The notes under the pieces were generated by a model. It was not told the DNA's origin, did not search any database, and saw nothing but the letters and a program-made list of their open reading frames with translations. Positions 4,045 through 26,808 of a DNA stretch of 64,000 bases are shown one piece after another (the stretch's first letter is position 1; each line of letters starts with the position of its first letter). This DNA comes from Patescibacteria group bacterium. GTDB taxonomy: Bacteria; Patescibacteriota; Patescibacteriia; XYB2-FULL-38-15. Position numbers and translations under genes: made by a program. The stretch covers positions 24,466 through 88,465 of the forward strand of contig JBGSRW010000008.1 in assembly GCA_041737355.1 (NCBI GenBank), in the 5' to 3' direction.

Positions 4045-4130
4045 ATCTCCGTGAAAAATCGGAGGGCCAAAGGTCAGACTGTGGATGTTCCCGGTCTGAT
4101 TTTAGTAAACGCAAATAAGGAGGTTTTCTG

Positions 4131-5384: not shown

Positions 5385-5407
5385 CTGGCCGGCCGCTCTC
5401 CCACCAA

Positions 5408-5542: not shown

Positions 5543-5597
5543 ATTAGCTCTTTGGCAATTTCGGCGCATAGCGCCGTAGAAAGAAAGGAGATAGTTG

Positions 5598-5930: not shown

Positions 5931-6106
5931 AGAAGGAGTGTCGCAAGAGCGTGCCGGAGGTCAAGACGGGAGAGGGTGTTTACATCCTCCGCGTCATGCC
6001 CCAGCCGTCCGTCTGCGCGCACGAGGCGGTCCGTCCCTCCACCCGGCCGATCATACGCTCCGCCATCAAGATCGTCGGCCAGCACGGCCGCGACTGTCTC
6101 CCATAG
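5927..6106 (+). CDS. Hypothetical high-GC small protein (59 aa), translationally coupled to ORF 5598
   Basis: GGAGG 6 nt before ATG 5927. ATGA start/stop overlap with the upstream ORF. Stop TAG at 6104-6106 is immediately followed by repeat copy 2. Confidence 0.35.
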   Translation: MKKECRKSVPEVKTGEGVYILRVMPQPSVCAHEAVRPSTRPIIRSAIKIVGQHGRDCLP

Positions 6107-6236
6107 TTTGTTCTTGGAGCAAGTAGTCTGTGCAATGCAGACACTGTTCGTCAATCACTCTAAGGTGAACGGCGACAGGATCTTGCTCCAAGTCCTTTTC
6201 CTCCAAATCAGCGTAAGTTGGTCTGGAGAAAAGGGA
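6107..6236. repeat. Direct repeat copy 2 (130 bp), starting the nucleotide after the stop of ORF 5927-6106
   Basis: Near-identical to 5408-5542. Both copies diverge from each other right after ...GGAGAAAAGGGA. Confidence 0.9.
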
Positions 6237-6286
6237 TTCCAAAATTTTTTAGCCATTTTTACGGCTAGTCAGATCCCACGCAAGGG

Positions 6287-6489: not shown

Positions 6490-8220
6490 ATGAAGTGGAA
6501 AGTCGCCGAACCGATCAGCGAAGAATTCAGAAATAAATTTCCGGAGATCGATCCGGTTATTTTGCAATTACTCGCTAACCGTGGGGTAAAAACCCAGGAA
6601 CAGATTGATGAATTTCTGTATCCAGATTACGGGCCTGATATTCACGATCCGTTTTTATTTTTGGATATGGAAAAAGCGGTCGAGCGGGTTTTCCGGGCGG
6701 TGGAGAAAGGAGAAAAAATTACGGTTCATGGCGATTACGACGCCGACGGAGTTTGCTCGGCATTGATCGTAGTCAGTACGCTCGAAGCCATGGGTGCTAA
6801 AGCCGAGGTTTATCTGCCGCACCGCGAACTCGAAGGGTATGGACTGAATATGCAAACAGTTGAAGAGTTGGGGAAAAGAGGGACAAATCTTATTATTACA
6901 ACCGACTGCGGCATCAGTAATCGGGAAGAGATAAAAAGAGCGGTTGAACTTGGAATGGAAGTAATTGTCACCGACCATCATGCCGAGCCGCTTAATTTGC
7001 CCGAGGCAGCTTTGGCAATTATCAATCCCCATTTGGCGCGAGAAAAGTATCCTTTTAAGGAATTGTCCGGGGCGGGAGTAGCTTTCAAATTCGTTCAGGG
7101 GATTTTACATAAAATAAAAACAACGGCGCCAAAAATAGAATTCAGGGAAGACCCGGAGGGATTTGAAAAATGGCTTCTGGATCTTACGGCTATTGCCACG
7201 ATTGCCGACATCATGCCCCTCTTGGGCGAGAACCGGACGATCGTAAAATACGGCTTGATTGTCCTGAACAAAACCAAACGGCTGGGATTGAAAAAAATGA
7301 TTGATTCGCTGGGCTTGAACAAGGCAAAATTGCTTGACGCAAGAAACGTATCTTTTCAGATTAGTCCGCGGCTGAACGCGGCCGGCCGGATCGACCACGC
7401 CAACCAGGCCTATGAACTTTTAAAAACATCGGACGGGAACGAAGTTGATAAATTGGTCGCGGCCCTGAATAAAACCAACGAAGACAGGCAAGCGCTTTCC
7501 GAGCGCGTAACGGCCGAAGCCAAGGAGAAAATAGGAGAAGAGGTTGGCGAAAGAAAAGTTTTGTTCGCCGTGGGTAAGGGTTGGCCGATAGGTATTGTCG
7601 GATTGGTAGCCGGGAAAATAGCCGATAATTTATGGCGGCCGACTTTTATTATGGCAGAAAAAGAGGGGAACATTATGGGGTCGGGAAGGAGTATTCCGGA
7701 ATTTGATATTATGGAAGGGCTCAGGGAGGCGAAAGAATTTTTGTCACATTACGGCGGACACGCCGGAGCCTGCGGATTTACCCTGAAAAATAAAAAAGAT
7801 CTGAAGAGGTTTGAAAAGACCCTGGAGAAATTTGCTGAAAAAAAATTAGCCGGCTCGGAACTTGTCCCAAGCCTGAATATTGACTCGGAAGTTAAACTGG
7901 AAAAAATAAATTGGGAGCTTTTCGAGCTCTTGGAAAAATTTTCACCATTCGGGAAGGGGAATGAGCGGCCGAGATATTTGGGGAGGGGTTTGACGGTCGA
8001 AAGCTTTGAAGGGGTGGGAAATAATGGAAATCATTTACGCATAAATTTGAGCCACGAAAACGGCCAAAAGAAAAAATTTATAGGTTTTTGTTTTGGAAGC
8101 TGGTGCGAGAAATTAAAAGCGGGAGATAAAATTGATGTAGTTTTTGAAATTGATGTTAATGAATGGAACGGGAACAGGGAACTGCAGATGAAAATTATTG
8201 ATTTAAAACATAGCGAATAA
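6490..8220 (+). CDS. recJ: Single-stranded-DNA-specific exonuclease RecJ (DHH/DHHA1)
   Basis: Core GDYDADGVCS...TDHH with DHH and DHHA1 motifs, 576 aa. Confidence 0.9.
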   Translation: MKWKVAEPISEEFRNKFPEIDPVILQLLANRGVKTQEQIDEFLYPDYGPDIHDPFLFLDMEKAVERVFRAVEKGEKITVHGDYDADGVCSALIVVSTLEAMGAKAEVYLPHRELEGYGLNMQTVEELGKRGTNLIITTDCGISNREEIKRAVELGMEVIVTDHHAEPLNLPEAALAIINPHLAREKYPFKELSGAGVAFKFVQGILHKIKTTAPKIEFREDPEGFEKWLLDLTAIATIADIMPLLGENRTIVKYGLIVLNKTKRLGLKKMIDSLGLNKAKLLDARNVSFQISPRLNAAGRIDHANQAYELLKTSDGNEVDKLVAALNKTNEDRQALSERVTAEAKEKIGEEVGERKVLFAVGKGWPIGIVGLVAGKIADNLWRPTFIMAEKEGNIMGSGRSIPEFDIMEGLREAKEFLSHYGGHAGACGFTLKNKKDLKRFEKTLEKFAEKKLAGSELVPSLNIDSEVKLEKINWELFELLEKFSPFGKGNERPRYLGRGLTVESFEGVGNNGNHLRINLSHENGQKKKFIGFCFGSWCEKLKAGDKIDVVFEIDVNEWNGNRELQMKIIDLKHSE

Positions 8221-8637: not shown

Positions 8638-8643
8638 TTTTTT

Positions 8644-8654
8644 TGTGCTATAAT
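8644..8654 (+). promoter_or_regulatory. Extended -10 promoter TGTGCTATAAT; start codon 6 nt downstream suggests a leaderless mRNA
   Basis: TATAAT at 8649-8654, ATG at 8661. Confidence 0.4.
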
Positions 8655-8660
8655 ATAGCC

Positions 8661-10220
8661 ATGGAAAAGGCAAGAAAAATCCTTGGCAGCAAAATTTTTA
8701 AATTGGCGCTGATTTTATTTTTTGTATTTTTAATCGGCGCTTTTTTGTTAATTAGGGAAAAAGTAAATGAAGTCAGGGCCGGAGAAGACGATAATGTCGG
8801 AGGATGGGCATGGTCGGAAAATTTCGGCTGGTTTTCGGGAAATTGTTCAAATTTGGGATTGTGTCCGGACGATCCGCCACCGCCCTACAATTACGGATTA
8901 AACGTGGACAGCAGCGGAAATGTCACCGGATACCTTTGGTCGGAACATCTGGGATGGGTTCAGTTTGGCGGACTTTCGGGTATGCCCTCTCCTGGGCAGG
9001 CGTTGTTTGACAACGGGAGCGACCGGGTTTCCGGCTGGGCCAAGATTTTAGCTTTGGGTGACGACGGTTGGCTGAAACTCCGGGGTAATATAGCTGCCGC
9101 GGGAGGCGGCCCCTTAAGGCAATGCCTTGATTGCGACGACGTTCTGGACGGGGAAGGGAACCCGATAGATGTCGCTTGCCGGATTTGTTTCAAATCGGAA
9201 AATTACGGAGGGAGCGGAAACATTTGCAATAATTGTTCCGGGTGCGTCCGCGGAGCGGAGACTCAGTGCGGAAATTGTACCGATTGCAGCGTTTACGGGG
9301 TAGCTATTGACCGGCAGACCGGGAAAATGGTCGGATGGGCTTGGAATGGAAATTCTGATCCGGCCGCGGCCGTCGGAGCGGGGTGGGTAAATTTTTCTCC
9401 GACCGCCGGAGGGCTGGGTTTGGCCGCGCCATGGCTTGAAACGATATACGGAGAAATTTACGGTAAGCCATTCGTCCGGTCGCCCTCTGCGTTCGTGGAA
9501 GTACTCGGAAAATACAACGCGACTTACTGCGTCCTCACTACCAGACAGATAACCCATTTCACTAGTAAAGAAGGATGTCTTATCACGCCTTTTGAAAGTT
9601 TTGATTTTCCAAAAACAAGCAATCTTTACACCAATGTTTTCGGAAAAATTGATTTAGCCGGGATTTTAGCCGAAAAATATGGGACGGTGCAGAATATAAA
9701 CGACGAGTCGGGCATCCAGGATGTTTTAGCCGGAAAAGTTTATTTTCGCGACGGGGACTTAACAATTACCGGAAAAACTTTCAACAACGGAACTGGCGGC
9801 CAAAACGGCGCGGGTTTGATTGTGGTTAAGGGAAATTTGAATATTAACGGAGCTATCGCTTACCAAAATGCCGGAGTAACAAATTTGAAAAATTTGGCCT
9901 CGGTGGGATGGCTTGTCGTAAAACGCGATGACGGAACCGGTGGAAATATTATTATAAATCAGAACGTGGAAAATATGATCGGGGCATTTTACGCGGAAAA
10001 TGAGGTGACGACCGGAACCTCTGGCGACTGGCGGACCGATAAAGCATTAACGGTTCGTGGTTTGATTTTGGCCCATAAATTCAATTTTCAGCGTCTTTGG
10101 CAATCGGCAGCCCGCGGTTCGGAACAGATTGTATACGACGGACGGGTCTTGGCCAATACGCCTCCAGGGATGACGGATCTGATAAGAGCCTTACCGACTT
10201 GGCGGGAAGCGGCGCCATAA
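8661..10220 (+). CDS. Hypothetical signal-anchored surface/secreted protein with Trp/Gly-rich repeats, immediately upstream of the pilus genes
   Basis: N-terminal hydrophobic anchor KIFKLALILFFVFLIGAFLLI. Repeated motifs GGWAWSENFGWFSG, GYLWSEHLGWVQFGG, GWAKILALGDDGWLKLRG, GWAWNGNS...GAGWVNFS. Cys-rich mid region. ORF-track start 8643 (alternative start codon) replaced by ATG 8661. Confidence 0.7.
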   Translation: MEKARKILGSKIFKLALILFFVFLIGAFLLIREKVNEVRAGEDDNVGGWAWSENFGWFSGNCSNLGLCPDDPPPPYNYGLNVDSSGNVTGYLWSEHLGWVQFGGLSGMPSPGQALFDNGSDRVSGWAKILALGDDGWLKLRGNIAAAGGGPLRQCLDCDDVLDGEGNPIDVACRICFKSENYGGSGNICNNCSGCVRGAETQCGNCTDCSVYGVAIDRQTGKMVGWAWNGNSDPAAAVGAGWVNFSPTAGGLGLAAPWLETIYGEIYGKPFVRSPSAFVEVLGKYNATYCVLTTRQITHFTSKEGCLITPFESFDFPKTSNLYTNVFGKIDLAGILAEKYGTVQNINDESGIQDVLAGKVYFRDGDLTITGKTFNNGTGGQNGAGLIVVKGNLNINGAIAYQNAGVTNLKNLASVGWLVVKRDDGTGGNIIINQNVENMIGAFYAENEVTTGTSGDWRTDKALTVRGLILAHKFNFQRLWQSAARGSEQIVYDGRVLANTPPGMTDLIRALPTWREAAP

Positions 10221-10270
10221 AAAGTTCTGGGGATATTAATGCTTGCCAGAGTTGGTGGGCGGTCGGTTTT

Positions 10271-10281
10271 TGTGGTATAAT
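10271..10281 (+). promoter_or_regulatory. Extended -10 promoter TGTGGTATAAT upstream of pilM
   Basis: TGnTATAAT 34 nt upstream of ATG 10315. Confidence 0.4.
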
Positions 10282-10314
10282 ATTAAAAGTAAATTATCAA
10301 TAGTTAATCGATAT

Positions 10315-11400
10315 ATGCAAAAAAGTTATTTAGGCGTTGACCTCGGGGCAACCAGTATCAAAATCGTCGAATTGAAGGAAGAGGCCGGTCGGCCCAGGCT
10401 TCTTACTTACGGTTATACCGAACAGGCCGCCGGTTATCCGGAAAAAGAATTTACCGATACCCCAGAGAGATCAATCGATCTTATCAAACAGGTTTGCGTC
10501 AAAGCCAGAACCGTCTCGAAGCAAGCGGTTGCCGCACTTCCCTCCGCGTCCGTTTTCAGTTCGGTCATAAATATTCCGGCCGCGCCAGGCAAGGATTTGG
10601 CCGCCGCCGTGCAATGGGAGGCCAAAAAAATTATCCCACTGCCTCTTGAGGAAATGATTTTGGATTGGAAAATTTTAACTCCGGAAGGGGAGACGGCCGG
10701 GACCGCAGCGCCCGCTCCGGTAATACCTACGGTTCAGGCGTCCGCTCCGAAAACAACGCAAGTTTTGCTGACCGCCGCTGCAAAAACAATGGTCAAAAAG
10801 TATTTGGATATTTTTAAAGGTGCCGGGTTGAGCCTTGTCAGTCTTGAAACGGAAACGTTCGCCCTGATCAGATCTCTCGTCGGGATCGACAAGTCCACCG
10901 CGATTCTCGTGGATATGGGGGCGGCGAGTACGACTATTTCAATCGTTGAGAGCGGAATTCCATTTTTGAACCGTTCTTTGAATATCGGCGGACTGACAAT
11001 AACAAAAGAAATAGCGGCAAGTTTGGGTATCGATTTGAATCAGGCTGAACAGATGAAGTACGACGTCGGGATGGCGGGAGCGGGAACGGGCGGAGGAGGC
11101 GTACCAAAAATTATCGAGCGCGCCCTTTCGATGCTTTTGAACGAAATAAAATACTGTACCAATATTTATCAAAGCCAGGACAATACCAGGGGGCGCCGGA
11201 TAGAAAAAATCGTTTTGACCGGAGGAGCCGCCCTTTTGCCCGGTTTTCCGGACTATCTAGCCGGGGCGTTGAATACAAGAGTTTTTATAGGCAATCCCTG
11301 GGCAAGGGTTATTTACCCCGAGGAACTGAGACCAATTTTGGACCAGATCGGTCCTAAATTTTCCGTCGCAATCGGTTTGGCGATGAGGGAAATAGAGTAG
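10315..11400 (+). CDS. pilM: Type IV pilus assembly protein PilM (actin-like ATPase fold)
   Basis: MQKSYLGVDLGATSIKIVEL... is the PilM N-terminus. ORF-track start 10243 lies upstream of the promoter, so the start was reassigned to ATG 10315. Confidence 0.85.
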   Translation: MQKSYLGVDLGATSIKIVELKEEAGRPRLLTYGYTEQAAGYPEKEFTDTPERSIDLIKQVCVKARTVSKQAVAALPSASVFSSVINIPAAPGKDLAAAVQWEAKKIIPLPLEEMILDWKILTPEGETAGTAAPAPVIPTVQASAPKTTQVLLTAAAKTMVKKYLDIFKGAGLSLVSLETETFALIRSLVGIDKSTAILVDMGAASTTISIVESGIPFLNRSLNIGGLTITKEIAASLGIDLNQAEQMKYDVGMAGAGTGGGGVPKIIERALSMLLNEIKYCTNIYQSQDNTRGRRIEKIVLTGGAALLPGFPDYLAGALNTRVFIGNPWARVIYPEELRPILDQIGPKFSVAIGLAMREIE

Positions 11401-11435: not shown

Positions 11436-12416
11436 ATGCCGAACGGCAATAAAAATAACGGAAAGAAGGAGATTGAATTGCTCCCGGCAGAATTCAGGAG
11501 GCCAGAAGAAAAAAAGAGACGGGAGGAAAGGCCGGAAGTGAAATTATTTATTCCTCCGGCGGAAGCTAAATCTCAAAGGGAAACCTTTACGGGGAGGTTT
11601 TTTGGTACAAGAGAAACGCCGAAGCCGGTTGAAAATAAAAATGTTCGTGAAGAAACGGATATGTCGGTCTTCAAAATGCAAAAAGAGCCGAGAAAACCCC
11701 TCCAGCCCCCACCGCCTCCGCCGCCGCCACGTTCGGTTCCGCCTCCGGTCGCTTTGCGCCAAGCTCCTCAGATAAAAAAAGAACCTCTCCCGCCGCCAAA
11801 ATTACCGCCGCAATCAGCCGGAAAAGGTATTGTTTCGTCTAAAAACAGAATGGGAGGGATTACCCTGATTCCCGAAGAAAAAACATCTCCCAAGGAAGCG
11901 GCGAGACCCAAGCAAAAAGTTATTCTTGCGGTAATGGTGATTATTTTGGTCGCCATTTTAGGCGGAGTTTTTGGAATATTGGCGTGGTATTCGGGAGCGG
12001 CAAAAAATGAGTTAGCAAAGATAGAAAAAGATGTCGCCGCGGTAGAACAACAAATCAAAAATTTGGATGAAGCCAAAAATCGCGCCCAGACATTACAAAA
12101 GCAATTTCAAATTGCCGAGAAACTTTTGAATAGCCATGTTTACTGGACCGGGGTTTATTCTTTTCTTGAAAAAAATACCATCCCGGAAGTCTATTTTAAA
12201 AATTTTGTCGGCGGAAGCGACGGGCAGATCAGTATGTCTGGGGTAGCGAAAAGTTACAAGGCGGTTGCCGGCCAGATAGTTTCTTTGCGCGAAGCGGAAA
12301 AAGTGGAAAAAGTTTCCATTACTAGCGCGTCGGCAAGTGTTTCTCCGACAGGGGAGACAGCCGAAGTAAATTTTGACGTCAAATTAAAATTAAATCCGGA
12401 GATATTTTTAAAATAA
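11436..12416 (+). CDS. pilN: PilN-like pilus assembly protein with a long Pro-rich cytoplasmic insertion
   Basis: N-terminal EIELLPAEFRR (PilN-type xxLLP PilM-binding motif), then about 160 aa of Pro/Lys-rich low complexity (PPPPPPPPRSVPPP), a single TM (VILAVMVIILVAILGGVFGILAW), a coiled coil and a periplasmic domain. Position between pilM and pilO supports the call. Confidence 0.6.
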   Translation: MPNGNKNNGKKEIELLPAEFRRPEEKKRREERPEVKLFIPPAEAKSQRETFTGRFFGTRETPKPVENKNVREETDMSVFKMQKEPRKPLQPPPPPPPPRSVPPPVALRQAPQIKKEPLPPPKLPPQSAGKGIVSSKNRMGGITLIPEEKTSPKEAARPKQKVILAVMVIILVAILGGVFGILAWYSGAAKNELAKIEKDVAAVEQQIKNLDEAKNRAQTLQKQFQIAEKLLNSHVYWTGVYSFLEKNTIPEVYFKNFVGGSDGQISMSGVAKSYKAVAGQIVSLREAEKVEKVSITSASASVSPTGETAEVNFDVKLKLNPEIFLK

Positions 12417-12419
12417 AAT

Positions 12420-13004
12420 ATGGCCGAAAAATCGGAAGTAAAAAAAGAAGAAAAATCCAAGGAAAAAACCTCCATCGTTCTTTTTATTTTTTTGGCAGTG
12501 GCGGTTTTCGCAGCTCTTTCATATTTTTTGGTTTGGCCTCAATACGAAAAATTTTCCCAGACTAAAAATAAAATTACGGCGGAAAAGGCTCGGCTTGATG
12601 ACCAAAAAGCAACGCTGGCAAATATAAATAAAATGATTGCCAATTACGAGGCGATCGGTCAGGCGAACCGGGAGAAACTGGCCTCGATGCTGCCGGAAAC
12701 GACAGACGAGCCGGGATTGTTTGTTCTTTTCGAAGCACTGGCAATAAAAAATAAAATGGCGCTTTTGGCCTTGGATATAAGCGAGAAGGACGTTTCGGCT
12801 GATTTAAAAAACTTAGGGGTGAAAGAGGTTAACATCGCCGCCAATCTGACGGGGGGAGGTTACGCCGACTTTAAAAATTTGCTTGCGGATTTGGAAACAA
12901 ATTTAAGGCTTATGGATATTACGGCAATAAATTATACCCCAGACCCTTCTTCGCTGACGCTCAACGTAAAAACTTACCGTCTGAATAATTCTCCGGCTAA
13001 ATAG
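12420..13004 (+). CDS. pilO: PilO-like pilus assembly protein
   Basis: N-terminal TM, coiled coil, C-terminal PilO-like domain. Operon position after pilN. Confidence 0.6.
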   Translation: MAEKSEVKKEEKSKEKTSIVLFIFLAVAVFAALSYFLVWPQYEKFSQTKNKITAEKARLDDQKATLANINKMIANYEAIGQANREKLASMLPETTDEPGLFVLFEALAIKNKMALLALDISEKDVSADLKNLGVKEVNIAANLTGGGYADFKNLLADLETNLRLMDITAINYTPDPSSLTLNVKTYRLNNSPAK

Positions 13005-13265: not shown

Positions 13266-14999
13266 ATGGCAAGTCCGTTGCTCAATCTTCTGGTGGAAGA
13301 AAAATTTATAGAGAAGGACACGGCGCAGGCAATTGTTGAAGAGAGCCAGAAAACCGGAAAAAGCGTAGAATCAATCATCGAAGAATCCGGCGCCGTTGAA
13401 GAGGAAAAATTGGCCGAAACAAGGGGCCGGATTTTTAATTTGCCATACGCAAATCTTGTCGGCCGGGAAATAAAATTCGAAGACCTGAATATAATCCCGA
13501 AGGACGTAGCGGAAAATAACCAAGTAATATCTTTTGAACAAATCGACGGGGAAGTCAGTGTCGGCATAGTTGATCCTAAAAATATCTCCGCCATGGAGGC
13601 CTTGCAGTTTTTGGCCAAGGAAAAAAATTTTTCTATAAAATATTTCGCGATATCCCACACAAGTTTCAAGGATGCCGCCAAAAAATATGAAATTTTGAAA
13701 AAAGAGGTTGAAAAAGTTTTGGAAATTGCTAAAGAAAGATTTACGTCGGAGGAAAAGGCTATCGAAGAGGTTCCTTTGGGGCAGATTGAGGAAGTGATCA
13801 AAAAGGCGCCCGTTTCCAAGATGGTCGCGATGATAATGAAGTATGCTGTTGACAATAAGGCGTCGGATATTCACATAGAGCCGGGTTTTAAGGAATCCAG
13901 GGTTCGCTACAGGGTTGATGGTGTTTTGAAAGGGAGATTGGCTCTTCCGGCTTACATTCATGCCGCGGTTGTTGCGAGAATTAAAGTTTTGGCAAATTTG
14001 AAACTGGACGAAACAAGAATTCCCCAAGACGGGAGAATTCGTCAGGCAATCGGAGGGAGGAATGTCGATTTTCGTATTTCAACTCTTCCGTTGATGGATC
14101 AGGAAAAAGTCGTAATGAGGGTGCTCGAAACGGCAAGCCGGGCCGCTTCGCTCGAGAATCTCGGTTTCCGCGGTCGGGCGGTCGAAGTTATTTCGAGAGA
14201 GATAAAAAAACCGCACGGTCTATTGCTTGTGACCGGTCCGACCGGGTCGGGGAAGTCGACAACTCTTTATACGGCCTTAAGCATGGTTAACCGTGAGGGA
14301 ATAAATATAGTAACACTTGAAGATCCTATTGAATATTATATCGAGGGGGTCAACCAATCTCAGATAAGGCCGGAAATCGGTTTTACTTTCGCGGCCGGAC
14401 TCAGGGCGCTTTTGCGCCAGGATCCGAATATTATCATGGTCGGAGAAATCCGCGACAGTGAAACGGCTGAACTCGCGATTCACGCGGCATTAACAGGACA
14501 TTTAATTTTTTCGACTTTGCACACCAACGACGCGGCCGGAGCAATTCCCCGCCTGATTGATATGAAAGTAGAACCATTTTTGCTTTCCTCGACGCTCAAT
14601 GCCATTGTAGCCCAGCGTTTGGTAAGAAAAATTTGCCCTTACTGCAAAGAACAAATCGATGCGCCGGAGGAAGTCGTAGCTGATTTCAGGAAAGAATTGG
14701 TTACTGTGCCAAAAAGATTCGTGCCCAAGGATATAGACATAAGCAAAAAGATTTCTTTATGGCATGGAGTCGGCTGCGCCCGTTGCGGAAACGAGGGATA
14801 CAGCGGACGGGTTGTTATTTCCGAAGTTATTGAAGCAACCGAAAATTTGAGGCAAATCATCGCCACGGGTTTTAATATAAAAAGTCTTAATGAGGAAATG
14901 GAGCGGCAGGGAGTTATTTCCATGAAGCAGGACGGATATCTGAAAGTTCTCGAGGGTTTGACGACAATTGAAGAAGTGATGAGGGCAACCCAGGAATAG
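13266..14999 (+). CDS. pilB: Type IV pilus assembly ATPase PilB (GspE family)
   Basis: Walker A GPTGSGKSTTLY, GspE N-terminal domain, C-terminal tetracysteine CPYC...CARCG. 577 aa. Confidence 0.9.
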   Translation: MASPLLNLLVEEKFIEKDTAQAIVEESQKTGKSVESIIEESGAVEEEKLAETRGRIFNLPYANLVGREIKFEDLNIIPKDVAENNQVISFEQIDGEVSVGIVDPKNISAMEALQFLAKEKNFSIKYFAISHTSFKDAAKKYEILKKEVEKVLEIAKERFTSEEKAIEEVPLGQIEEVIKKAPVSKMVAMIMKYAVDNKASDIHIEPGFKESRVRYRVDGVLKGRLALPAYIHAAVVARIKVLANLKLDETRIPQDGRIRQAIGGRNVDFRISTLPLMDQEKVVMRVLETASRAASLENLGFRGRAVEVISREIKKPHGLLLVTGPTGSGKSTTLYTALSMVNREGINIVTLEDPIEYYIEGVNQSQIRPEIGFTFAAGLRALLRQDPNIIMVGEIRDSETAELAIHAALTGHLIFSTLHTNDAAGAIPRLIDMKVEPFLLSSTLNAIVAQRLVRKICPYCKEQIDAPEEVVADFRKELVTVPKRFVPKDIDISKKISLWHGVGCARCGNEGYSGRVVISEVIEATENLRQIIATGFNIKSLNEEMERQGVISMKQDGYLKVLEGLTTIEEVMRATQE

Positions 15000-15023: not shown

Positions 15024-16109
15024 ATGGCGATAGACATAAATTTGGACAAATATTTGGCGAAAATCCCTTTTTTTAACAGGATTCCGCCGAAAGATTTGGT
15101 TATTTTTTCTCGGCAGTTATCTGTTATGATTTCTGCCGATGTTCCGATTGTTCAGGCCCTCAAGGTTCTTGTCCGCCAAACGGCAAATAATAATTTGAAA
15201 ACGGTAGTGGCTAATCTTGCTGCGGACGTCGAGGGGGGCACAAAATTTTCCGCGGCACTTTCGCGTTATCCCGATACTTTCAGCGATTTTTTCATAAACA
15301 TCGTCCGTTCCGGGGAAACGACGGGAAAACTTGATGAAGTTTTGGACTATTTGGCTACCCAACAGGAAAGAGATTACGATTTATCAAGCAAAATAAAAGG
15401 CGCCATGATTTATCCGGCGTTTATTTTATTTGGGCTTATTGCCGTCGGGACGGTGATGATGATTTTTGTTATCCCTAAATTAACCGATATTTTAAAGGAA
15501 ACGGGAGCGACATTGCCTCTCTCGACGAGAATTTTGATTGGAACTTCCGATATTATGAAAAATTACTGGTGGGCGCTTCTGATCGGTTTGGTAGCTTTTG
15601 TCGGCGGATTAAGATATCTAATTGCCCTGCCCTTGGGCAGGAAATATTGGGACACCATGAAATTAAAGCTTCCGATTTTCGGCCAGCTTTTTAAGAGAAT
15701 TTACATGGTCCGTTTTACGCGCGGACTTTCAACCCTCTTGACCGGAGGGGTGGAAATTGTCGGCAGTTTGAAAATAGCCGGAGCAATTGTTGGCAATGCT
15801 GTTTACCAAGATTTGATTTTACAGACTGTCCGCGAGGTGGAAGACGGCAATCCGATAACTACAGTTTTTGCAAAAAGCAAAGAAATTCCCGTGATGGTAA
15901 CCCAAATGCTCGGCATCGGCGAGCAGACAGGCAAAATCGACGCTATTTTGGCCCGCCTGACGGATTTTTACACCCGCGAAATAGAAAACATGGTCAGAAA
16001 TTTAACGACGATCATGGAACCGCTGATCATGCTTTTCATGGGCGTGGCGGTCGGCATCATGGTTGCGGCGATTATTTTGCCGATGTACAATCTGGCATCG
16101 CAATTTTAG
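15024..16109 (+). CDS. pilC: Type IV pilus platform protein PilC (GspF family)
   Basis: Two GspF repeats, three TM segments, 361 aa. Immediately downstream of pilB. Confidence 0.9.
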   Translation: MAIDINLDKYLAKIPFFNRIPPKDLVIFSRQLSVMISADVPIVQALKVLVRQTANNNLKTVVANLAADVEGGTKFSAALSRYPDTFSDFFINIVRSGETTGKLDEVLDYLATQQERDYDLSSKIKGAMIYPAFILFGLIAVGTVMMIFVIPKLTDILKETGATLPLSTRILIGTSDIMKNYWWALLIGLVAFVGGLRYLIALPLGRKYWDTMKLKLPIFGQLFKRIYMVRFTRGLSTLLTGGVEIVGSLKIAGAIVGNAVYQDLILQTVREVEDGNPITTVFAKSKEIPVMVTQMLGIGEQTGKIDAILARLTDFYTREIENMVRNLTTIMEPLIMLFMGVAVGIMVAAIILPMYNLASQF

Positions 16110-16111
16110 AC

Positions 16112-16121
16112 GTGCTATAAT
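16112..16121 (+). promoter_or_regulatory. Extended -10 promoter (GTGCTATAAT) upstream of pilin gene 1
   Basis: TGcTATAAT about 84 nt upstream of ATG 16205. Strong RBS AAAGGAGGTGA precedes the gene. Confidence 0.4.
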
Positions 16122-16188
16122 TTATAAATGTGGATAATTGAATATTTAAATCCTATGCTCGTGACTTAGAAGCTTAAAGCCGCGAGCC

Positions 16189-16368
16189 GAAAGGAGGTGA
16201 AAGAATGTTTAAAAATAAAAAAGGTTTCACTTTGATCGAATTGTTGGTGGTTATCGCCATCATCGGTCTTCTCTCGACTTTGGCGGTCGTTGCCTTGAGC
16301 AGCGCCAGAACCAAAGCCAGAGACGCGAAAAGAACTGCCGACATGAAGCAGGTTCAGACAGCCATGGA
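16189..16368 (+). repeat. 180-bp direct repeat copy 1: RBS plus first ~55 codons of pilin gene 1
   Basis: Near-identical to 16740-16919 (a few mismatches). Covers the SD, signal peptide and conserved N-terminal helix. Confidence 0.85.
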
Positions 16369-16648
16369 GCTCTATTATAATACTAATAGCGCTTATCCTT
16401 CATGCGCCGCCGGTACATTGGTTTCGGCTTGCGCCGCCTTAGCACCTGATTACTTGCCGGGCGTTTTGACCCTGAAAGATCCGGGTGGAGTTGCCGGTGC
16501 TTGCGCCGATCCGGCAGCAGCGAAATGTAACTACGCCTTTGGTACTGCCGCAGCGAACGAAGGCTATAGAATTACTTTCTGGCTTGAAGGAGCGACCGGA
16601 GATTTGGCTGCCGGAGCCCACAGAGTTACGGCTATGGGAATCCAGTAA
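16205..16648 (+). CDS. pilA: Type IV major pilin (prepilin, class III signal)
   Basis: MFKNKKGFTLIELLVVIAIIGLLSTLAVVALS is the canonical G|FTLIE prepilin cleavage and N-methylation motif. 147 aa. Confidence 0.85.
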   Translation: MFKNKKGFTLIELLVVIAIIGLLSTLAVVALSSARTKARDAKRTADMKQVQTAMELYYNTNSAYPSCAAGTLVSACAALAPDYLPGVLTLKDPGGVAGACADPAAAKCNYAFGTAAANEGYRITFWLEGATGDLAAGAHRVTAMGIQ

Positions 16649-16674
16649 ATTTTGTCTCGAAATTTCGAGAAAAA

Positions 16675-16700
16675 CTCCCCGCGAGGGGAGTTTTTGTTTT
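16675..16700 (+). terminator. Rho-independent terminator after pilin gene 1
   Basis: CTCCCCGCGAGGGGAG hairpin followed by TTTTTGTTTT. Preceded by the palindrome TCTCGAAATTTCGAGA (16655-16670). Confidence 0.7.
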
Positions 16701-16714
16701 GGGACATTTTGTAG

Positions 16715-16720
16715 TATAAT
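16715..16720 (+). promoter_or_regulatory. -10 element TATAAT upstream of pilin gene 2
   Basis: TTGTAGTATAAT about 35 nt upstream of ATG 16756. Duplicated RBS AAAGGAGGTGA. Confidence 0.35.
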
Positions 16721-16739
16721 TAATTTAATATACCAAAAA

Positions 16740-16919
16740 GAAAGGAGGTGAAAGAATGTTTAAAAATAAAAAAGGTTTCACTTTGATCGAATTGTTGGTG
16801 GTTATCGCCATCATCGGTCTTCTCTCGACTTTGGCGGTCGTTGCCTTGAGCAGCGCGAGAACCAAAGCCAGAGATTCAAAACGCGTGGCCGACATGAAGC
16901 AGGTTCAGACAGCCATGGA
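16740..16919 (+). repeat. 180-bp direct repeat copy 2 (5' part of pilin gene 2)
   Basis: See 16189-16368. Confidence 0.85.
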
Positions 16920-17217
16920 AATGGTTTTCAGCGAAGCCAACAGCTACGCCTTGGCTGGATGCACAACGGCCGGTAATAAGGTCAGCCTCTGCACCACGCC
17001 GCTCTCAACTTATTTGCCGAACGTCGCCAATCTTAAGGATCCGAAGGGGTTAAGCGCTTGCGCCGTAGCTTGTGATGGAACAATCACCGCGGCCTGCGAT
17101 TACTCGGTTAAAACCGTGCCGACTGCAAGTACTTACGAGTTTTGTTTCTATTTGGAAACAGCTACGGGCGATTTAGCGGCCGGAGCCCATAAAGTTACGC
17201 CAGCTGGGATTCAATAG
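16756..17217 (+). CDS. pilA: Type IV major pilin paralog 2
   Basis: N-terminal 50 aa identical to pilin 1. Divergent central and C-terminal domain with a conserved end ...TGDLAAGAHKVT. 153 aa. Confidence 0.85.
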   Translation: MFKNKKGFTLIELLVVIAIIGLLSTLAVVALSSARTKARDSKRVADMKQVQTAMEMVFSEANSYALAGCTTAGNKVSLCTTPLSTYLPNVANLKDPKGLSACAVACDGTITAACDYSVKTVPTASTYEFCFYLETATGDLAAGAHKVTPAGIQ

Positions 17218-17244
17218 CCGAATTTTTGATGCATCAAAACAAAA

Positions 17245-17275
17245 GCCCTTTTATCAGGGTTTTTGTTTTTTTTAT
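17245..17275 (+). terminator. Rho-independent terminator after pilin gene 2
   Basis: GCCCT-TTTATC-AGGGT stem extended by A/U pairs, then TTTTTGTTTTTTTT. Confidence 0.5.
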
Positions 17276-17283
17276 AAGGTTTT

Positions 17284-17294
17284 TGTGCTATAAT
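17284..17294 (+). promoter_or_regulatory. Extended -10 promoter TGTGCTATAAT upstream of pilD
   Basis: TGnTATAAT 145 nt upstream of pilD ATG 17439. Confidence 0.45.
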
Positions 17295-17305
17295 TTAATA
17301 ATATG

Positions 17306-17437
17306 CCCCGTTAGAAGTCTTTGACGGAAAAATTTTTTAATAAAATTTTTCCTTGTGGCAGAACGGGGATTATACACGAATTTTTTCTTTTTTAAAAGAC
17401 GCAAATAAACATTTAAAATTATAAACTTCTAACGGGG
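17306..17437 (+). promoter_or_regulatory. pilD 5' leader with three mutually exclusive pairing elements (candidate translational attenuator/riboregulator)
   Basis: CCCCGTTAGAAGT (17306-17318) is the perfect reverse complement of ACTTCTAACGGGG (17425-17437), which abuts the start codon and contains the only SD-like GGGG. A middle decoy AACGGGG sits at 17362-17368. The 5' element can pair with either downstream copy. Confidence 0.35.
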
Positions 17438-17438
17438 T

Positions 17439-18224
17439 ATGGCGCTAATTATCGTCTTTATTTTTGGCTTAGTCATCGGAAGTTTTTTGAATGTCGTAAT
17501 CTGGAGACTGCATACGGGGGAATCGGCTCTAAAAGGCCGCTCTTATTGTCCGAAATGCAAGCACCGCTTGGATTTTTTTGATTTATTTCCGGTCATGAGT
17601 TTTGTAATCCAGGGAGGAAAGTGCCGTTATTGCCGCGAGTCAATTTCCTGGCAATATCCGTTTGTTGAATTGGCTACGGCCGCGCTTTTTGTCATGGCTT
17701 ATGTAATTTCCGATTTTTCCGCCGAAGGAGGATTGGTCTTGGGTAGGCAACTTTTAATTCTGCTGAAGTATTGGTTTGTTGTCTCCGCGATGATTATAGT
17801 TTTTGTTTATGACGCTAAACATTATTTGATTTTGGACAAAGTAATCTATCCCGCGGCAGCCGTCGCGTTTTTTGCCAGTCCGCTTCTTTCGGGAGACGTT
17901 TGGTGGCGGGGAATTCCGGACGGTCTTTTAGCGGCGGCGATCGGCGGCGGATTTTTTCTTTTTCAATATGCCGTGTCAAAAGGAAAATGGATTGGCGGAG
18001 GGGACGTAAAATTGGGATTTTTGATGGGTTTATTTTTAGGTGTTAAGGGTTTGCTTGTGGCTTTCTTTTTTTCTTATTGCCTCGGGGCCGTCGTCGGGCT
18101 TGGTCTTGTCGCGGCCGGCAGAAAAAACATGAAAGGCCAGCTTCCTTTCGGGACTTTTTTGGCCGCCGGAACCCTTATCGCTTTATTTTGGGCCGAACCG
18201 ATCTTGAAATGGTATTTAAATTAA
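17439..18224 (+). CDS. pilD: Prepilin peptidase / N-methyltransferase PilD (A24 family)
   Basis: N-terminal tetracysteine CPKCKHRLDFFDLFPV...GKCRYCRESISWQYP, multiple TMs, 261 aa. Confidence 0.9.
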   Translation: MALIIVFIFGLVIGSFLNVVIWRLHTGESALKGRSYCPKCKHRLDFFDLFPVMSFVIQGGKCRYCRESISWQYPFVELATAALFVMAYVISDFSAEGGLVLGRQLLILLKYWFVVSAMIIVFVYDAKHYLILDKVIYPAAAVAFFASPLLSGDVWWRGIPDGLLAAAIGGGFFLFQYAVSKGKWIGGGDVKLGFLMGLFLGVKGLLVAFFFSYCLGAVVGLGLVAAGRKNMKGQLPFGTFLAAGTLIALFWAEPILKWYLN

Positions 18225-18225: not shown

Positions 18226-18741
18226 ATGAAAAAAGGTTTTACAATAATAGAGCTCCTGGTTGCCCTGGGTGTTTTTGTTGTCGTGACGGCCATGGTCGTT
18301 GCAAATTTCCGGGCCGGCGGCCGGAGCGACGAACTCCGAATCGCCGCCGAGACACTTATTTCCAACCTGAGAAAAGCCCAGAATATGTCCTTAGCCGGCC
18401 AGCTCACGAACGGCGTCAGCCCGCCAGGCGGTTACGGAGTTTATTTCAAATTGTCCGATGCCGATCGATATATTATTTTTTCGGACCTTGACGGAGATTT
18501 GGGATATACCGCGGGCGAAGCTCTTTTAGACGGAACAATAATTTTGCCAAAAGATATCAGAATTTCAAATATCCAGCCGGCAGCCGTCTCAAGTGCAATT
18601 TTTAAACCGCCAAAACCGGTTATTTATATCAATGGGGGAATTTCCGAGGCGACTCTTTCAGTGACCTTACAGCATAATTTGAGTGGCAAGACGCGGACTG
18701 TCACGGTTAAGAGAATTTCGGGACAAATCGGAACCGAATAA
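18226..18741 (+). CDS. Minor pilin / pseudopilin (prepilin-type N-terminus)
   Basis: MKKGFTIIELLVALGVFVVVTAMVVANF is a class III signal. Confidence 0.7.
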   Translation: MKKGFTIIELLVALGVFVVVTAMVVANFRAGGRSDELRIAAETLISNLRKAQNMSLAGQLTNGVSPPGGYGVYFKLSDADRYIIFSDLDGDLGYTAGEALLDGTIILPKDIRISNIQPAAVSSAIFKPPKPVIYINGGISEATLSVTLQHNLSGKTRTVTVKRISGQIGTE

Positions 18742-18747: not shown

Positions 18748-19350
18748 ATGGATTTTAATTATAAAAATTTAAAGTCTGAGACGGGTCAAAGCTTGGTGGA
18801 AATGATTATTGCCATCGCGATTATTTTAACCGGCTTGATCGGCGCGATTGCCTTGACTATCTCAAATTTAAGCGGATCGGCGGAAGCCGGAACCATGGTT
18901 GTCGCGACAAATTTGGCAAAAGAGGGGATCGAGGTGGCAAGAAATATCAGGGACGCGAATTGGTTAAAAAATTTGGCATGGGACAACGGTTTGTCTTCGG
19001 GCGCGGATTACACGGCAATAGCGGTTTTCAATCCGGCGACAAAACAATGGGGCCTCGATTTTTTACCAAACAGTATTTCCGACGCGGCGGCGAAACTTTA
19101 TCTTTCGGCGGATAATTTATATCTTCAAAACTCAACTCCGCCGGTAGGAAATCAGACGATTTATTCCAGAATTTTGACGTTCGGCCAAATTTGTTTTAAT
19201 ACATCAACTAAAACTGAAACTGTAAGCGACAGTCCTTGTGGAGGGGGAGAAAATAAAATCGGTATAAGAATAAAGGCCGATGTGGCTTGGATTTTGAGCG
19301 GGAAGTCGAGGAGTCTGACGGTTGAAGATAAAATTTACAACTGGCGGTAA
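18748..19350 (+). CDS. Minor pilin (PilV-like, prepilin-type N-terminus)
   Basis: GQSLVEMIIAIAIILTGLIGAIAL is a prepilin cleavage/methylation domain. Confidence 0.65.
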   Translation: MDFNYKNLKSETGQSLVEMIIAIAIILTGLIGAIALTISNLSGSAEAGTMVVATNLAKEGIEVARNIRDANWLKNLAWDNGLSSGADYTAIAVFNPATKQWGLDFLPNSISDAAAKLYLSADNLYLQNSTPPVGNQTIYSRILTFGQICFNTSTKTETVSDSPCGGGENKIGIRIKADVAWILSGKSRSLTVEDKIYNWR

Positions 19351-19351
19351 T

Positions 19352-19924
19352 ATGAATAAAAAGGGATTTACCTTGGTAGAAATGATGGTAGTTCTGGCAA
19401 TTTTTTCGGTTGCCACGGTTGTGGTTGTCGATATTTTTATGATGGCGTCGCGCGCCGAACGCCGGACTTTGGCTATTCAAAAAATCCAGTCCGACGCGCG
19501 TTATTCGCTAGAAGCCATGGCGCGGGAAATCAGGATGGACATGATTGATTACGATTATTACAACGGAACAATAAATGAAGTGCCAAGCGGAACTTTGGCT
19601 TTGCGCGACCAGGACGACAACCAGATAATTTTCAAAAAAAGCAATGGGAATTGTCCGATCGGTACGACGAATTGCCTGGTTGTTTCTTTGGATGGTACAA
19701 ACTGGGAAAGCATCACTGCCCCGGGAATTGATGTGCTTGATCTAAAATTTTATATTGATCCGACGGTTGATCCATTTAAACCTAACGCCGGTTTTACTTA
19801 CGATTCGGATAATCATCCCAGAGTAACGATTGTTCTTGTGTCAAAAGGCGTCGGCGGGCGTCCGGACGAGCAGCAGACAGTATATTTGCAGACGACCGTT
19901 TCAAATAGAATTTATAGAAGATAA
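19352..19924 (+). CDS. Minor pilin (PilW-like, prepilin-type N-terminus)
   Basis: MNKKGFTLVEMMVVLAIFSVATVVVV. Start reassigned to ATG 19352, just after the upstream stop. Confidence 0.65.
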   Translation: MNKKGFTLVEMMVVLAIFSVATVVVVDIFMMASRAERRTLAIQKIQSDARYSLEAMAREIRMDMIDYDYYNGTINEVPSGTLALRDQDDNQIIFKKSNGNCPIGTTNCLVVSLDGTNWESITAPGIDVLDLKFYIDPTVDPFKPNAGFTYDSDNHPRVTIVLVSKGVGGRPDEQQTVYLQTTVSNRIYRR

Positions 19925-19930: not shown

Positions 19931-20791
19931 ATGAGAAAAAAAAGATTTAAAAAACAAACGGGCAACGTACTTCTTTTGTCTTTACTCGTCATGGCGGGGA
20001 TTATGACGGCCGGGCTTGGCATTGGTGCGATTATTATAAATGAAATAAGGCAGGCGCGGAATATTGATTTTTCGGCTCTGGCCTATTACGCCGCCGAGTC
20101 GGGAGTCGAACAGGCGCTATACAAACTTCGGAAAGAGGAAGCGCTCCTAAATTGTCCGGCCGGAGTTTGCGGTGGGAACGGTTTTTGCACTACGGGAAAC
20201 CAGGAGCCGTGCTTGAAGAATAGCGAAAATTTGAGTAATCAATCCTCTTGGACAAGAGCCGTAACCGATAAGGAATGGCAAATTTATGGTAAAATCAAAA
20301 AAGACGAAACGCTCCAGGTAGATCTTTACGATCCGGAAGGAACCTCGGCGGCCGGAGTTGAATCGGTCAAGATCCAGTGGACACCGCAATGCGTCCCGCC
20401 GGCCGTTTCAACGATCGAGATTTCCTACATTGCCTGGAATCCGGCAACCGGTTGGTCGCAAGATACGGAAAAGAAATTCAAATATTCCGCCTTGGCAAGC
20501 CCGGTGATTAATAACGGTTTCAGCAACGTTAAATCTTACCGGATGAGAATTAAATCGCTTTACTGCGATATCAGTAATTTGATAGTCACTGCCTGGGGAA
20601 ACGACAATGCCAACGTACCACAGGTACAGATTCCGGCGAGGATTGTTTTGAATTCAACCGGACAGTACAGCAATCTCCGCCAGGCGATTAAAATGACTAT
20701 GCCGCGGAAATCGCCGATGTCGGGATTGTACGACTATGTTTTATTCAGTGAGTGTTCTTTGGTTAAAGGCGAGGCGGCAACTTGTCCGTAA
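19931..20791 (+). CDS. PilX-like minor pilin / pilus-associated protein
   Basis: N-terminal hydrophobic segment QTGNVLLLSLLVMAGIMTAGLGIGAIIINEIRQAR resembles the PilX N-terminal domain. Cys-rich periplasmic part. 286 aa. Confidence 0.6.
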   Translation: MRKKRFKKQTGNVLLLSLLVMAGIMTAGLGIGAIIINEIRQARNIDFSALAYYAAESGVEQALYKLRKEEALLNCPAGVCGGNGFCTTGNQEPCLKNSENLSNQSSWTRAVTDKEWQIYGKIKKDETLQVDLYDPEGTSAAGVESVKIQWTPQCVPPAVSTIEISYIAWNPATGWSQDTEKKFKYSALASPVINNGFSNVKSYRMRIKSLYCDISNLIVTAWGNDNANVPQVQIPARIVLNSTGQYSNLRQAIKMTMPRKSPMSGLYDYVLFSECSLVKGEAATCP

Positions 20792-25740: not shown

Positions 25741-26808
25741 ATGCGAATGCCAAAGGGTAGAAGGCCGCACACTGTGCTTTGCGCTAACCGGCGAGCCGGC
25801 TGGCGCTTTGAACAATGGTCGGAGTTGGACCAGTGGAGCCTCGAGGCCGGCATCAGAACATATGCCCTATCAGAGATCGAAGAGCTCGATCCCGTCATCG
25901 CGAATTTCGATGACGAGACGCTGCTTCTCCTGATTTACGGCGGGGACGGAACCCTGCTTCAGATTATGAACAGCTTGCTCCGGCGCAAACGGCGCAAGGG
26001 CAAGCCAAAGCCGAAAATGCCGATCATTGTGCCCGTCGGAGGAGGCACGATGAAACGCCTGCCGCGCTGGGCGCTTTGGAACGGCACGCCGGCTGAAAAT
26101 GCCATGACAGCCCTTGAACTTTTCGAGGGCAAGCGTCTGCCGTACCTGCCTCTTCCCTTGCTAAAAGTGGAGTGGGGTGGGCAATGCTACTTCGCGGTCA
26201 CTCTCATGGCTGGAGCCTTGGTTCGTATCATGCAGGAGTACTCGCGTTTCAAGACAACGCCGGCAATTGCCGGACTTTTTTCCGCCGGAGCCTTGGCCGC
26301 CGCGGCCTTTGACAGGCCAAAGTTTTTCACCAGACTCTACGGGCAAATCCGGGCCAAGGTGACCTCCGACGGAGAGGTTCTCGGGACCGAACGGTTCATT
26401 GTCGTGATTCGTGACGTTCTCGAGGAATTGATTTTCTCGATCAAACCGTACAAGGGAATCTGCGCGCCGGGCCAGTCCTTCTCTCTGGCCTACGCCATCG
26501 ACTACCACGAGGTGGCGCGAAAGTTTCCTTGGATTGTTGCGGGAGCGGTTCCCGGCAACGACCCCCGGTATTTCAATCGGCCGGCAAGTTTAACCGTAAT
26601 CGAGCCGCACGAGGAGATTCCCTTTACGCTCGACGGCGAATACTTTACGGCCAAGCCGGGCGAGACCATCAAGGTTTCCCAGGGGCCGGAAGTAAGAGTT
26701 GCCGTTAACCCGTTCGTTCATCTGACTCTTCTGAAACGGTTTTTGAATCGCGGCAGAAGCTTGAAGGAGGTCGTGAGTTACATTTTTCCTACGCCGAGAA
26801 AGAACTAG
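25741..26808 (+). CDS. Lipid kinase, diacylglycerol-kinase catalytic domain family (YegS/DgkB-like), high GC
   Basis: Signature LLLIYGGDGTLLQIMNSL (GGDGT motif of DAGK_cat). RBS GGAGGAAGGAG. GC much higher than flanking genes. Confidence 0.7.
   Translation: MRMPKGRRPHTVLCANRRAGWRFEQWSELDQWSLEAGIRTYALSEIEELDPVIANFDDETLLLLIYGGDGTLLQIMNSLLRRKRRKGKPKPKMPIIVPVGGGTMKRLPRWALWNGTPAENAMTALELFEGKRLPYLPLPLLKVEWGGQCYFAVTLMAGALVRIMQEYSRFKTTPAIAGLFSAGALAAAAFDRPKFFTRLYGQIRAKVTSDGEVLGTERFIVVIRDVLEELIFSIKPYKGICAPGQSFSLAYAIDYHEVARKFPWIVAGAVPGNDPRYFNRPASLTVIEPHEEIPFTLDGEYFTAKPGETIKVSQGPEVRVAVNPFVHLTLLKRFLNRGRSLKEVVSYIFPTPRKN

Follow-up and report, generated by a model that had tools for sequence, protein, structure and literature searches.

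A two-pilin type IV pilus locus in a Patescibacteria bacterium: apparent concerted evolution of a 5' module shared by two divergent, predicted major pilin genes

A 64,000-nucleotide stretch of DNA (the window) from an uncultivated, ultrasmall bacterium of the Candidate Phyla Radiation (CPR)/Patescibacteria contains two adjacent genes, pilA1 and pilA2, that are predicted to encode major type IV pilins. The genes share a 180-nucleotide 5' module and differ in the part that encodes the globular head. Sequence comparison with related genomes shows a module that appears to undergo repeated intragenomic gene conversion, being near-identical within a genome and drifting between genomes. The best explanation, given a probability of roughly 75%, is that pilA1 and pilA2 are old paralogues, each complete and with its own terminator, that have a gene-converted 5' module and place two heads on one machine, most likely in a heteropolymer. 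Type IV pilus loci with two major pilins that share an identical N-terminus are already known, and this one adds concerted evolution of the module encoding helix alpha1 in a CPR bacterium. As two-pilin loci go it is neat but rather ordinary, and it is no cassette-type antigenic variation system.

The shared 5' module

The two copies of the module are direct repeats (Table 1) with a start-to-start distance of 551 nucleotides. Each is composed of the 16 nucleotides 5' of the ATG (GAAAGGAGGTGAAAGA, the Shine-Dalgarno region) and the first 164 nucleotides of the coding sequence (CDS). An earlier reading of the letters alone (the original prediction) had described an identical stretch of about 180 bp, allowing for a few mismatches. 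The repeat is real and includes the ribosome-binding site (RBS), the leader, and alpha1, but its copies match at 171 of 180 positions (95%) and are not identical. Identity is exact over the first 117 nucleotides, that is, the 16-nucleotide Shine-Dalgarno region and 101 nucleotides of CDS. One of the nine mismatches is at CDS position 102, and the other eight are at positions 120-132. Two exact copies of a 36-nucleotide piece of the module are present in the window, where shuffled sequences give an expectation of 0. At the protein level, residues 1-40 of PilA1 and PilA2 are identical, and 52 of the first 55 residues match.

Concerted evolution of the module

The comparison covered about 90 pilC-anchored CPR loci (L numbers below). 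PilA1 has an orthologue series graded from 73 to 100% identity (P0001, 100%), and PilA2 has a separate one (P0021, 93%; P0022, 80%; P0024, 71%). There are therefore two distinct pilin types, A1 and A2, across the clade. An A1 gene and an A2 gene arranged as in the window are found in L005, an independent Joint Genome Institute (JGI) metagenome contig of 149.6 kb. Its PilC is 92% identical to that of the window, and it has the same A1-A2 order, the same terminator and -10 boxes, and an orthologous spacer. The two L005 modules are identical at all 180 positions. Both module boundaries are placed as in the window, 16 nucleotides 5' of the ATG and at codon 55.

Over codons 1-55, the synonymous divergence (dS) between paralogues is 0.18 within the window and 0.03 within L005. 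Orthologues of the window and L005 differ by 0.30-0.33, and the window genes differ from those of single-pilin genomes with a near-identical peptide by 0.74-1.58. Since the last of these values is reached despite the near-identical peptide, protein constraint does not hold the synonymous sites fixed, and the within-genome identity needs a process acting at the DNA level.

The informative sites of the window and L005 give the same picture by region. In the module, 7 are genome-specific and 1 is type-specific. The core has 2 genome-specific, 77 type-specific, and 2 cross sites, with almost no exchange between the heads and no mosaics, and the C-terminus has 0 genome-specific and 7 type-specific sites. 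The module and core patterns differ with a Fisher p of 5e-8. Recombination-driven pilin variation, as first proposed, thus survives in part: recombination acts at the locus, though in the reverse sense, since it homogenises the constant 5' module and does not shuffle the variable middle.

The core dS between window and L005 orthologues is 0.74-0.93. Together with the orthologous spacer, the pilA1 terminator, and the -10 boxes, this makes the tandem pair older than the split between the window and L005. Homogenisation must therefore have come later and in both lineages, which is concerted evolution by gene conversion.

All nine module mismatches of the window are within a patch at codons 34-44 (Table 1). 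This patch resembles other A2-like genes, for example L015_a, and suggests several conversion events with different tracts. The conversion tract ends at about codon 55, near the end of alpha1, and the heads beyond it are too divergent (about 45% amino acid identity, saturated dS) to pair.

Pilin heads and the C-terminal motif

PilA1 and PilA2 were modelled with AlphaFold2, with a predicted local distance difference test (pLDDT) score of 90.6 and 87.4, respectively. In both models a single helix (residues 10-61) leads into the strands of a small beta head (lollipop fold). Codons 1-55 of the module correspond to the leader and mature residues 1-48, which are nearly all of alpha1 in these models; 46 residues of the helix are included. 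This helix is the most conserved part of the pilin, with 24 invariant columns across 65 homologues. Foldseek searches against the PDB placed pilins and pseudopilins on top (PAK pilin, XcpG, and Clostridioides difficile PilA1), although the matches are weak, with E values of 0.005-0.9 and TM-scores of 0.42-0.51.

The two proteins are 63% identical overall. Their heads, from residue 56 onward, are about 45-49% identical (tblastn E 3e-16 to 5e-18), and the positions of Cys, YLP, and LKDP are conserved between them. The central regions are therefore not unrelated, as had been supposed, but homologous. In the core of the paralogues dS is saturated and the nonsynonymous divergence (dN) is 0.76. The heads are under purifying selection, with a dN/dS of about 0.1. 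On these comparisons the heads are old, divergent paralogues that have been held as two orthologous lineages by purifying selection.

The original prediction also pointed to a conserved 3' end, with the shared peptide TGDLAAGAH(R/K)VT. The peptide is present, and in the models it makes up the final beta-strands of the head. The DNA that encodes it is not a shared module. Across codons 130-147 the paralogues differ at 15 of 54 nucleotides, 10.7 of the 14.3 synonymous sites have changed (nearly all of them), and dN is 0.12. The sequence LEGxTGxLxAGAHxxTPxGIQ is the consensus across 65 diverse homologues. The 3' end was accordingly rejected as a shared DNA module. The TGDLAAGAH motif is a structural signature of the whole family, kept by selection on the protein, and not a recombination anchor specific to this pair.

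Transcription and translation signals

Each of the two genes has the same strong RBS, a start codon, the leader, a -10-like box, and a hairpin/T-run terminator (Table 1). Judged by these signals, pilA1 and pilA2 are two complete genes, and neither resembles a silent cassette. Silent cassettes, which the original prediction had suggested looking for elsewhere in the genome, were absent from the 64 kb: no 5'-truncated copies or head fragments were present, and both copies are complete genes. Likewise, the window contains no other major-pilin gene and no inverted copy of the module. Rfam gave no match above threshold in positions 15900-17700.

Relative to the window, L005 has a 104-nucleotide insertion in the pilA1-pilA2 spacer (about 5876-5979) with two GC-rich hairpins (CAGTCACAACCCCGATCGGGTTGTGAC ...), and a 35-nucleotide hairpin insertion 3' of the pilA2 terminator (about 6500-6535). 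These insertions may be small mobile or repeat elements.

Pilin genes between pilC and pilD in related genomes

The PilC relatives in species-representative genomes are all CPR/Patescibacteria metagenome-assembled genomes. The closest named ones are Falkowbacteria, Komeilibacteria, and Kerfeldbacteria, and some automatic labels are obviously wrong. The slot between pilC and pilD can be sorted by its content. It has a single A1-type gene in L001 (a closed 886-kb genome), L002-L004, L011, L012, and L016, and a single A2-like gene in L008, L009, L013, and L092. An A2 type with a 183-amino-acid pilin is present in L006 and L007, and an A2-like with an A1-like gene in L015. The pilin type does not track the PilC phylogeny: L008, with an A2-like gene, has 90-93% PilC identity with four A1-type genomes (L012, L016, L001, and L002). 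Strain-level variation, to which the original prediction had tied its case, is thus real at the population level, as the slot content differs among close relatives.

Two or three pilins are located 3' of pilC in many of the approximately 90 loci. In L041 (1655-4022), which has a different pilin subfamily, at least 60 nucleotides of upstream sequence and 121 nucleotides of CDS are about 98% identical, while the heads are 39% identical. L037 (5484-6830) has three pilin copies with long near-identical 5' tracts, one copy being interrupted by a run of N. No long near-identical 5' tract is present in the tandem pilins of L015, L039, L053, L062, and L006; L015 is an outgroup in which both types are present and the 5' end is not homogenised. 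The design of a homogenised 5' end with divergent heads is recurrent (L041 and L037 being independent cases) and not obligatory.

Two further arrangements were seen. In L023 (5330-7263) a near-whole-gene pilin duplicate flanks a third pilin, and the paralogues share a long near-identical 5' tract. A gene for a 186-amino-acid DUF6886-like protein is inserted between pilB and pilC in the L008-type relatives, L008 (4221-4781), L009 (3090-3650), and L092 (6648-7208, minus strand), and is absent from the window.

Proposed function and alternative explanations

With the same leader and the same alpha1, both pilins would be cut by one PilD, loaded by one PilC/PilB machine, and packed through an identical core. 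One machine would in this way display two different head surfaces. Mixed (heteropolymeric) filaments would be the most likely product, as for PilE1/PilE2 of Streptococcus sanguinis, with two homopolymers as the alternative. The conserved module and its flanks would probably also permit the loss or replacement of a head by homologous recombination, and relatives with A1 only, A2-like only, or both would be the expected outcome.

Several observations weigh against this explanation. The exact tandem pair was found in two genomes only, so concerted evolution rests on one genome comparison and on the unrelated analogues L041 and L037. The module dS between orthologues is also below the core dS (p about 0.02-0.03), and extra 5' constraint or exchange between strains may contribute to the low module values. 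The search for further copies covered 64 kb of the genome. Divergence between the heads far exceeds that between PilE1 and PilE2 of S. sanguinis (45% identity, versus about 80% overall), and on this ground separate filaments, or specialisation of one of the copies, would be no less plausible than a heteropolymer. Of two adjacent predicted major pilins in Legionella, only one acts as the major pilin (PMC13170364).

The strongest competitor, which is tentative and has perhaps one chance in three, is that PilA1 and PilA2 are alternative subunits of two distinct filaments. They would form separate homopolymers with different roles (for example, DNA uptake versus host attachment), perhaps under differential transcription, and 5' conversion would still hold. 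A -10-like box and a terminator for each gene fit this arrangement, as does a head identity of about 45%. There are also precedents: in Thermus thermophilus, PilA4 forms wide pili used in transformation and PilA5 narrow ones used in twitching (PMC7203116), the Saccharibacteria strain TM7x makes two distinct pili (PMC11623550), and single mutants of S. sanguinis still form homopolymers (PMC6497953, PMC10628169). Against it, an identical leader and alpha1 offer the machinery no obvious means of sorting the subunits, and the TM7x pili use separate loci and ATPases (PMC11623550), unlike the pair described here. Mixed filaments are favoured on balance, and separate homopolymers would be nearly as likely given the 45% head identity.

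Switching by recombination between the direct repeats is unlikely. Here a RecA-mediated pop-out would remove the pilA1 head, with pilA2 as the single gene remaining, or unequal exchange would occur, giving heritable switching with re-acquisition by transformation. The repeats, at 95-100% identity, are long enough for homologous recombination, single-gene relatives of both types exist, and the slot differs among genomes at 90-94% PilC identity (L008 with an A2-like gene; L012, L016, L001, and L002 with A1). However, no deletion junction or hybrid was found, and a metagenome scan with the clade-invariant 32-nucleotide module start matched only L005 and one single-pilin locus of the L008 type. 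The tandem pair has been kept since the split of the window from L005 (core dS 0.7-0.9), and ancient differential loss explains the single-gene states equally well.

An equally speculative and improbable extension is that the homogenised module, the C-terminal motif, and the pilC/pilD flanks form a portable recombination anchor. Competent CPR bacteria would swap, add, or drop heads across strains by means of their own pili, tandem pairs would be standing intermediates, and the head type would set the host or surface bound. If so, Patescibacteria would have a population-level pilin cassette system for host-range switching.

Neisseria-type antigenic variation is largely refuted and has very little probability left. 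It would have one copy expressed and the other as donor, or silent cassettes elsewhere, with conversion moving the variable segments. The conserved-variable-conserved layout is superficially alike, and gene conversion does operate at the locus. Both copies, though, carry an RBS, an ATG, a leader, and a terminator. The conversion tracts are in the constant 5' part and not in the variable part, where type-specific sites predominate as counted above, and truncated head fragments were not found in the 64 kb. No G-quadruplex motif is present near the pilins, the sole match of a regular-expression scan of the window being at 11068, inside pilM. The low dN/dS of the heads also argues against diversifying selection. 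A Moraxella-type invertible segment (Piv) was rejected as well: the copies are direct repeats, the module has no inverted copy, and no recombinase domain was found in the ORFs (open reading frames) scanned, a scan that did not cover ORFs under 220 amino acids outside the cluster.

The weakest proposal, that no recombination took place and the 5' identity reflects either strong purifying selection on the leader, alpha1, and translation initiation or an assembly artefact joining alleles of two strains, is hardly credible: alpha1 is indeed the most conserved pilin region, but near-identical module proteins differ by a dS of 0.74-1.58 between genomes versus 0.03-0.18 within a genome (Fisher p = 8e-9), and other CPR tandem pilins lack long identical tracts. 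An assembly chimera was rejected since L005, an independent and diverged assembly, also carries the tandem pair with an orthologous spacer, and since the unique spacer at 16649-16739 cannot come from a mis-join at the repeat.

Comparison with known pilin systems

The closest analogue is PilE1/PilE2 of S. sanguinis, where two major-pilin genes are likewise present in one pil locus with a single machinery. The N-termini of PilE1 and PilE2 are identical, and the two pilins assemble into a 4:3 stochastic heteropolymer (PMC6497953, PMC10628169). As in the present pair, the leader and the N-terminal part of alpha1 are identical and the differences are confined to the globular head (PMC6497953, PMC10628169). 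Either pilin is sufficient in S. sanguinis, and either could plausibly be assembled alone here. The systems differ in that PilE1 and PilE2 are about 80% identical and differ mainly in an 8-amino-acid loop, whereas here the heads are about 45% identical with saturated dS and the proteins 63% identical overall. Co-assembly is demonstrated in S. sanguinis and predicted here. Concerted evolution of the 5' end is documented here by cross-genome comparison, an analysis not found in the S. sanguinis reports (PMC6497953, PMC10628169).

PilA4/PilA5 of T. thermophilus and PilA1/PilA2 of TM7x are similar in that a single cell makes two major pilins whose heads and functions differ (PMC7203116, PMC11623550). 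TM7x is itself a CPR bacterium, and its pili mediate host binding (PMC11623550). Its pilins are encoded in different loci with separate assembly ATPases, in contrast to the adjacent genes of the window, which share the RBS, leader, and alpha1. Adjacent genes with a DNA-identical 5' module are not described for either system in these reports (PMC7203116, PMC11623550). Legionella pneumophila pilA1/pilA2 are two related predicted major pilins in one locus, conserved across the genus; only PilA2 acts as the major pilin there, and the abstract of that report makes no mention of a shared 5' DNA module (PMC13170364).

Two other systems are useful for comparison in their mode of recombination. Neisseria pilE/pilS undergoes gene conversion between pilin-related sequences, which have a conserved N-terminal and then a variable C-terminal region. 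The present locus is unlike it in having complete, expressed-type genes, a homogenised constant part, and unexchanged variable parts, with neither silent cassettes nor, near the pilins, a G-quadruplex motif in the 64-kb window. The tuf genes and the rRNA operons show partial-gene concerted evolution, in which paralogues of one genome resemble each other more than orthologues of different genomes do, homogenisation extends to synonymous sites, and the tract is bounded. Here, unlike in tuf and rRNA, conversion is confined to the first third of the gene and stops where a structural domain of the protein has its boundary. No directly relevant paper on concerted evolution of pilin paralogues was found in the limited literature set consulted, which is an absence of evidence.

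Type IV pili are the main predicted tools of host attachment and DNA uptake in CPR/Patescibacteria, and their major subunits are almost unstudied outside Saccharibacteria. The locus indicates that a Parcubacteria-like lineage keeps two very different heads on one identical core helix, with the identity maintained by gene conversion, and predicts that one machine builds mosaic or alternative filaments. It is a clean, small case of domain-bounded concerted evolution, and it warns that a conserved-variable-conserved layout in pilins should not be taken for antigenic-variation cassettes. It leaves the current understanding of pilus biology as it is.

The type IV pilus cluster

The pilA pair is flanked by pilC and pilD within a complete plus-strand type IV pilus cluster, composed of pilM/N/O, pilB, pilC, pilA1, pilA2, pilD, and minor pilin genes (Table 1). 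PilA1 and PilA2 are full-length prepilins, each with a Pfam N_methyl match (E about 1e-9) above the cut-off. Both have a class III signal peptide in which the leader MFKNKKG is followed by FTLIELLVVIAIIGLL. It is composed of a short basic leader ending in Gly, Phe at +1, Glu at +5, and the hydrophobic N-terminal part of alpha1. Genes for a prepilin peptidase, an extension ATPase, and a platform protein adjoin pilA1 and pilA2, as is characteristic of type IV pilins. That both are major and not minor pilins is suggested by their small size, their position directly after pilC, and their occupation of the place where relatives have their single pilin. Among the remaining large ORFs of the window there was no second pilB or pilT, and this is the only type IV pilus cluster seen in it.

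Table 1. Features of the pilin pair and the surrounding type IV pilus cluster (positions in the window).
Feature	Position	Strand	Basis and remarks
pilM	10243-11400	+	Pfam PilM_2, E 4e-42; alignment complex
pilN-like	11436-12416	+	Pfam PilN, E 2e-4; alignment complex
pilO-like	12420-13004	+	Pfam PilO, E 1e-4; alignment complex
pilB, extension ATPase	13266-14999	+	Pfam T2SSE, E 9e-127; MshEN
pilC, platform protein	15024-16109	+	Pfam T2SSF, E 3e-58; two repeats
pilA1 promoter-like site, CTGGCA-18-TATAAT with TG extension	16092-16121	+	Consensus scan 10/12; TGCTATAAT conserved in L005; presumed promoter activity
5' module copy 1 (RBS, 7-residue leader, mature residues 1-48, most of helix alpha1)	16189-16368	+	Direct repeat D1
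pilA1, predicted major type IV pilin, A1 type, 147 amino acids	16205-16648	+	ORF; N_methyl; orthologues at 73-100% identity; AlphaFold2 model
Paralogue-difference patch within module, CDS 102-132, codons 34-44	16306-16336 (pilA2 counterpart 16857-16887)	+	Holds all 9 mismatches; absent in L005
PilA1 C-terminal family motif (ATGDLAAGAHRVTAMGIQ), last beta-strands	16592-16645	+	Consensus of 65 homologues; strands at residues 137-142 in AlphaFold2 model; paralogue dS saturated, dN 0.12
Intrinsic terminator 3' of pilA1, core hairpin 16670-16695 then T-run	16654-16705	+	∆G −25.6 kcal/mol, z −4.8; conserved in L005
-10-like box TATAAT for pilA2	16715-16720	+	Read from sequence; GTATAATTAATT conserved in L005; missed by two-hexamer scan, -35 weak; presumed activity
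5' module copy 2	16740-16919	+	Direct repeat D1, 95% identical to copy 1
pilA2, predicted major type IV pilin, A2 type, 153 amino acids	16756-17217	+	ORF; N_methyl; orthologues P0021 (93%) and P0022 (80%); AlphaFold2 model
PilA2 C-terminal family motif (ATGDLAAGAHKVTPAGIQ)	17161-17214	+	Family consensus; AlphaFold2 model
Intrinsic terminator 3' of pilA2	17236-17269	+	Terminator scan; ∆G −16.3 kcal/mol, z −3.6
pilD, prepilin peptidase/N-methyltransferase	17439-18224	+	Pfam A24_N_bact, E 1e-31; Peptidase_A24, E 3e-13
Minor pilin genes	GspH-like 18226-18741, 18748-19350, 19322-19924	+	N_methyl matches; gene order identical in all relatives
286-amino-acid ORF 3' of minor pilins	19931-20791	+	Gene order identical in all relatives

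A conserved leader of about 140 nucleotides lies 5' of pilD in the window (17296-17445) and in L005 (6579-6726), L012 (5779-5928), L006 (5863-6012), and L007 (2082-2231). The leader is closed by an 18-bp stem (ATATGCCCCGTTAGAAGTC ... AACTTCTAACGGGGTATG), which would mask both the Shine-Dalgarno sequence of pilD and its start codon and which encloses an A/U-rich inner hairpin. The 5' arm holds a 3-codon mini-ORF (ATG CCC CGT TAG). The leader has no Rfam match, and no compensatory pairs were seen in its arms, which are nearly invariant. Its role may be to control translation of the prepilin peptidase.

Directly 5' of pilM is an ORF (8643-10220) for a Cys- and Gly-rich protein of 525 amino acids with an N-terminal hydrophobic segment and no Pfam match. 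It could encode a pilus-associated surface protein.

Other observations in the window

A GC-rich island (61-70% in a genome of about 45% GC) covers positions 4001-6000 (roughly 3700-6240), between lepA (1866-3644) and a recJ-like gene (6490-8220). It contains long ORFs in several frames, including one of 417 amino acids (4131-5384) without a Pfam match, and a perfect 126-nucleotide direct repeat (5417-5542 and 6111-6236). Possible origins of the island are an insertion of foreign DNA, a mobile element, and a chimeric assembly.

The product of an ORF at 28332-30329 is a VirD4/TrwB-like type IV coupling protein that carries a treble-clef zinc finger at its C-terminus. The ORF is preceded by two others without a Pfam match (25741-26808 and 26919-28322). 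The coupling protein may belong to the Patescibacteria type IV secretion system described in PMC12102498.

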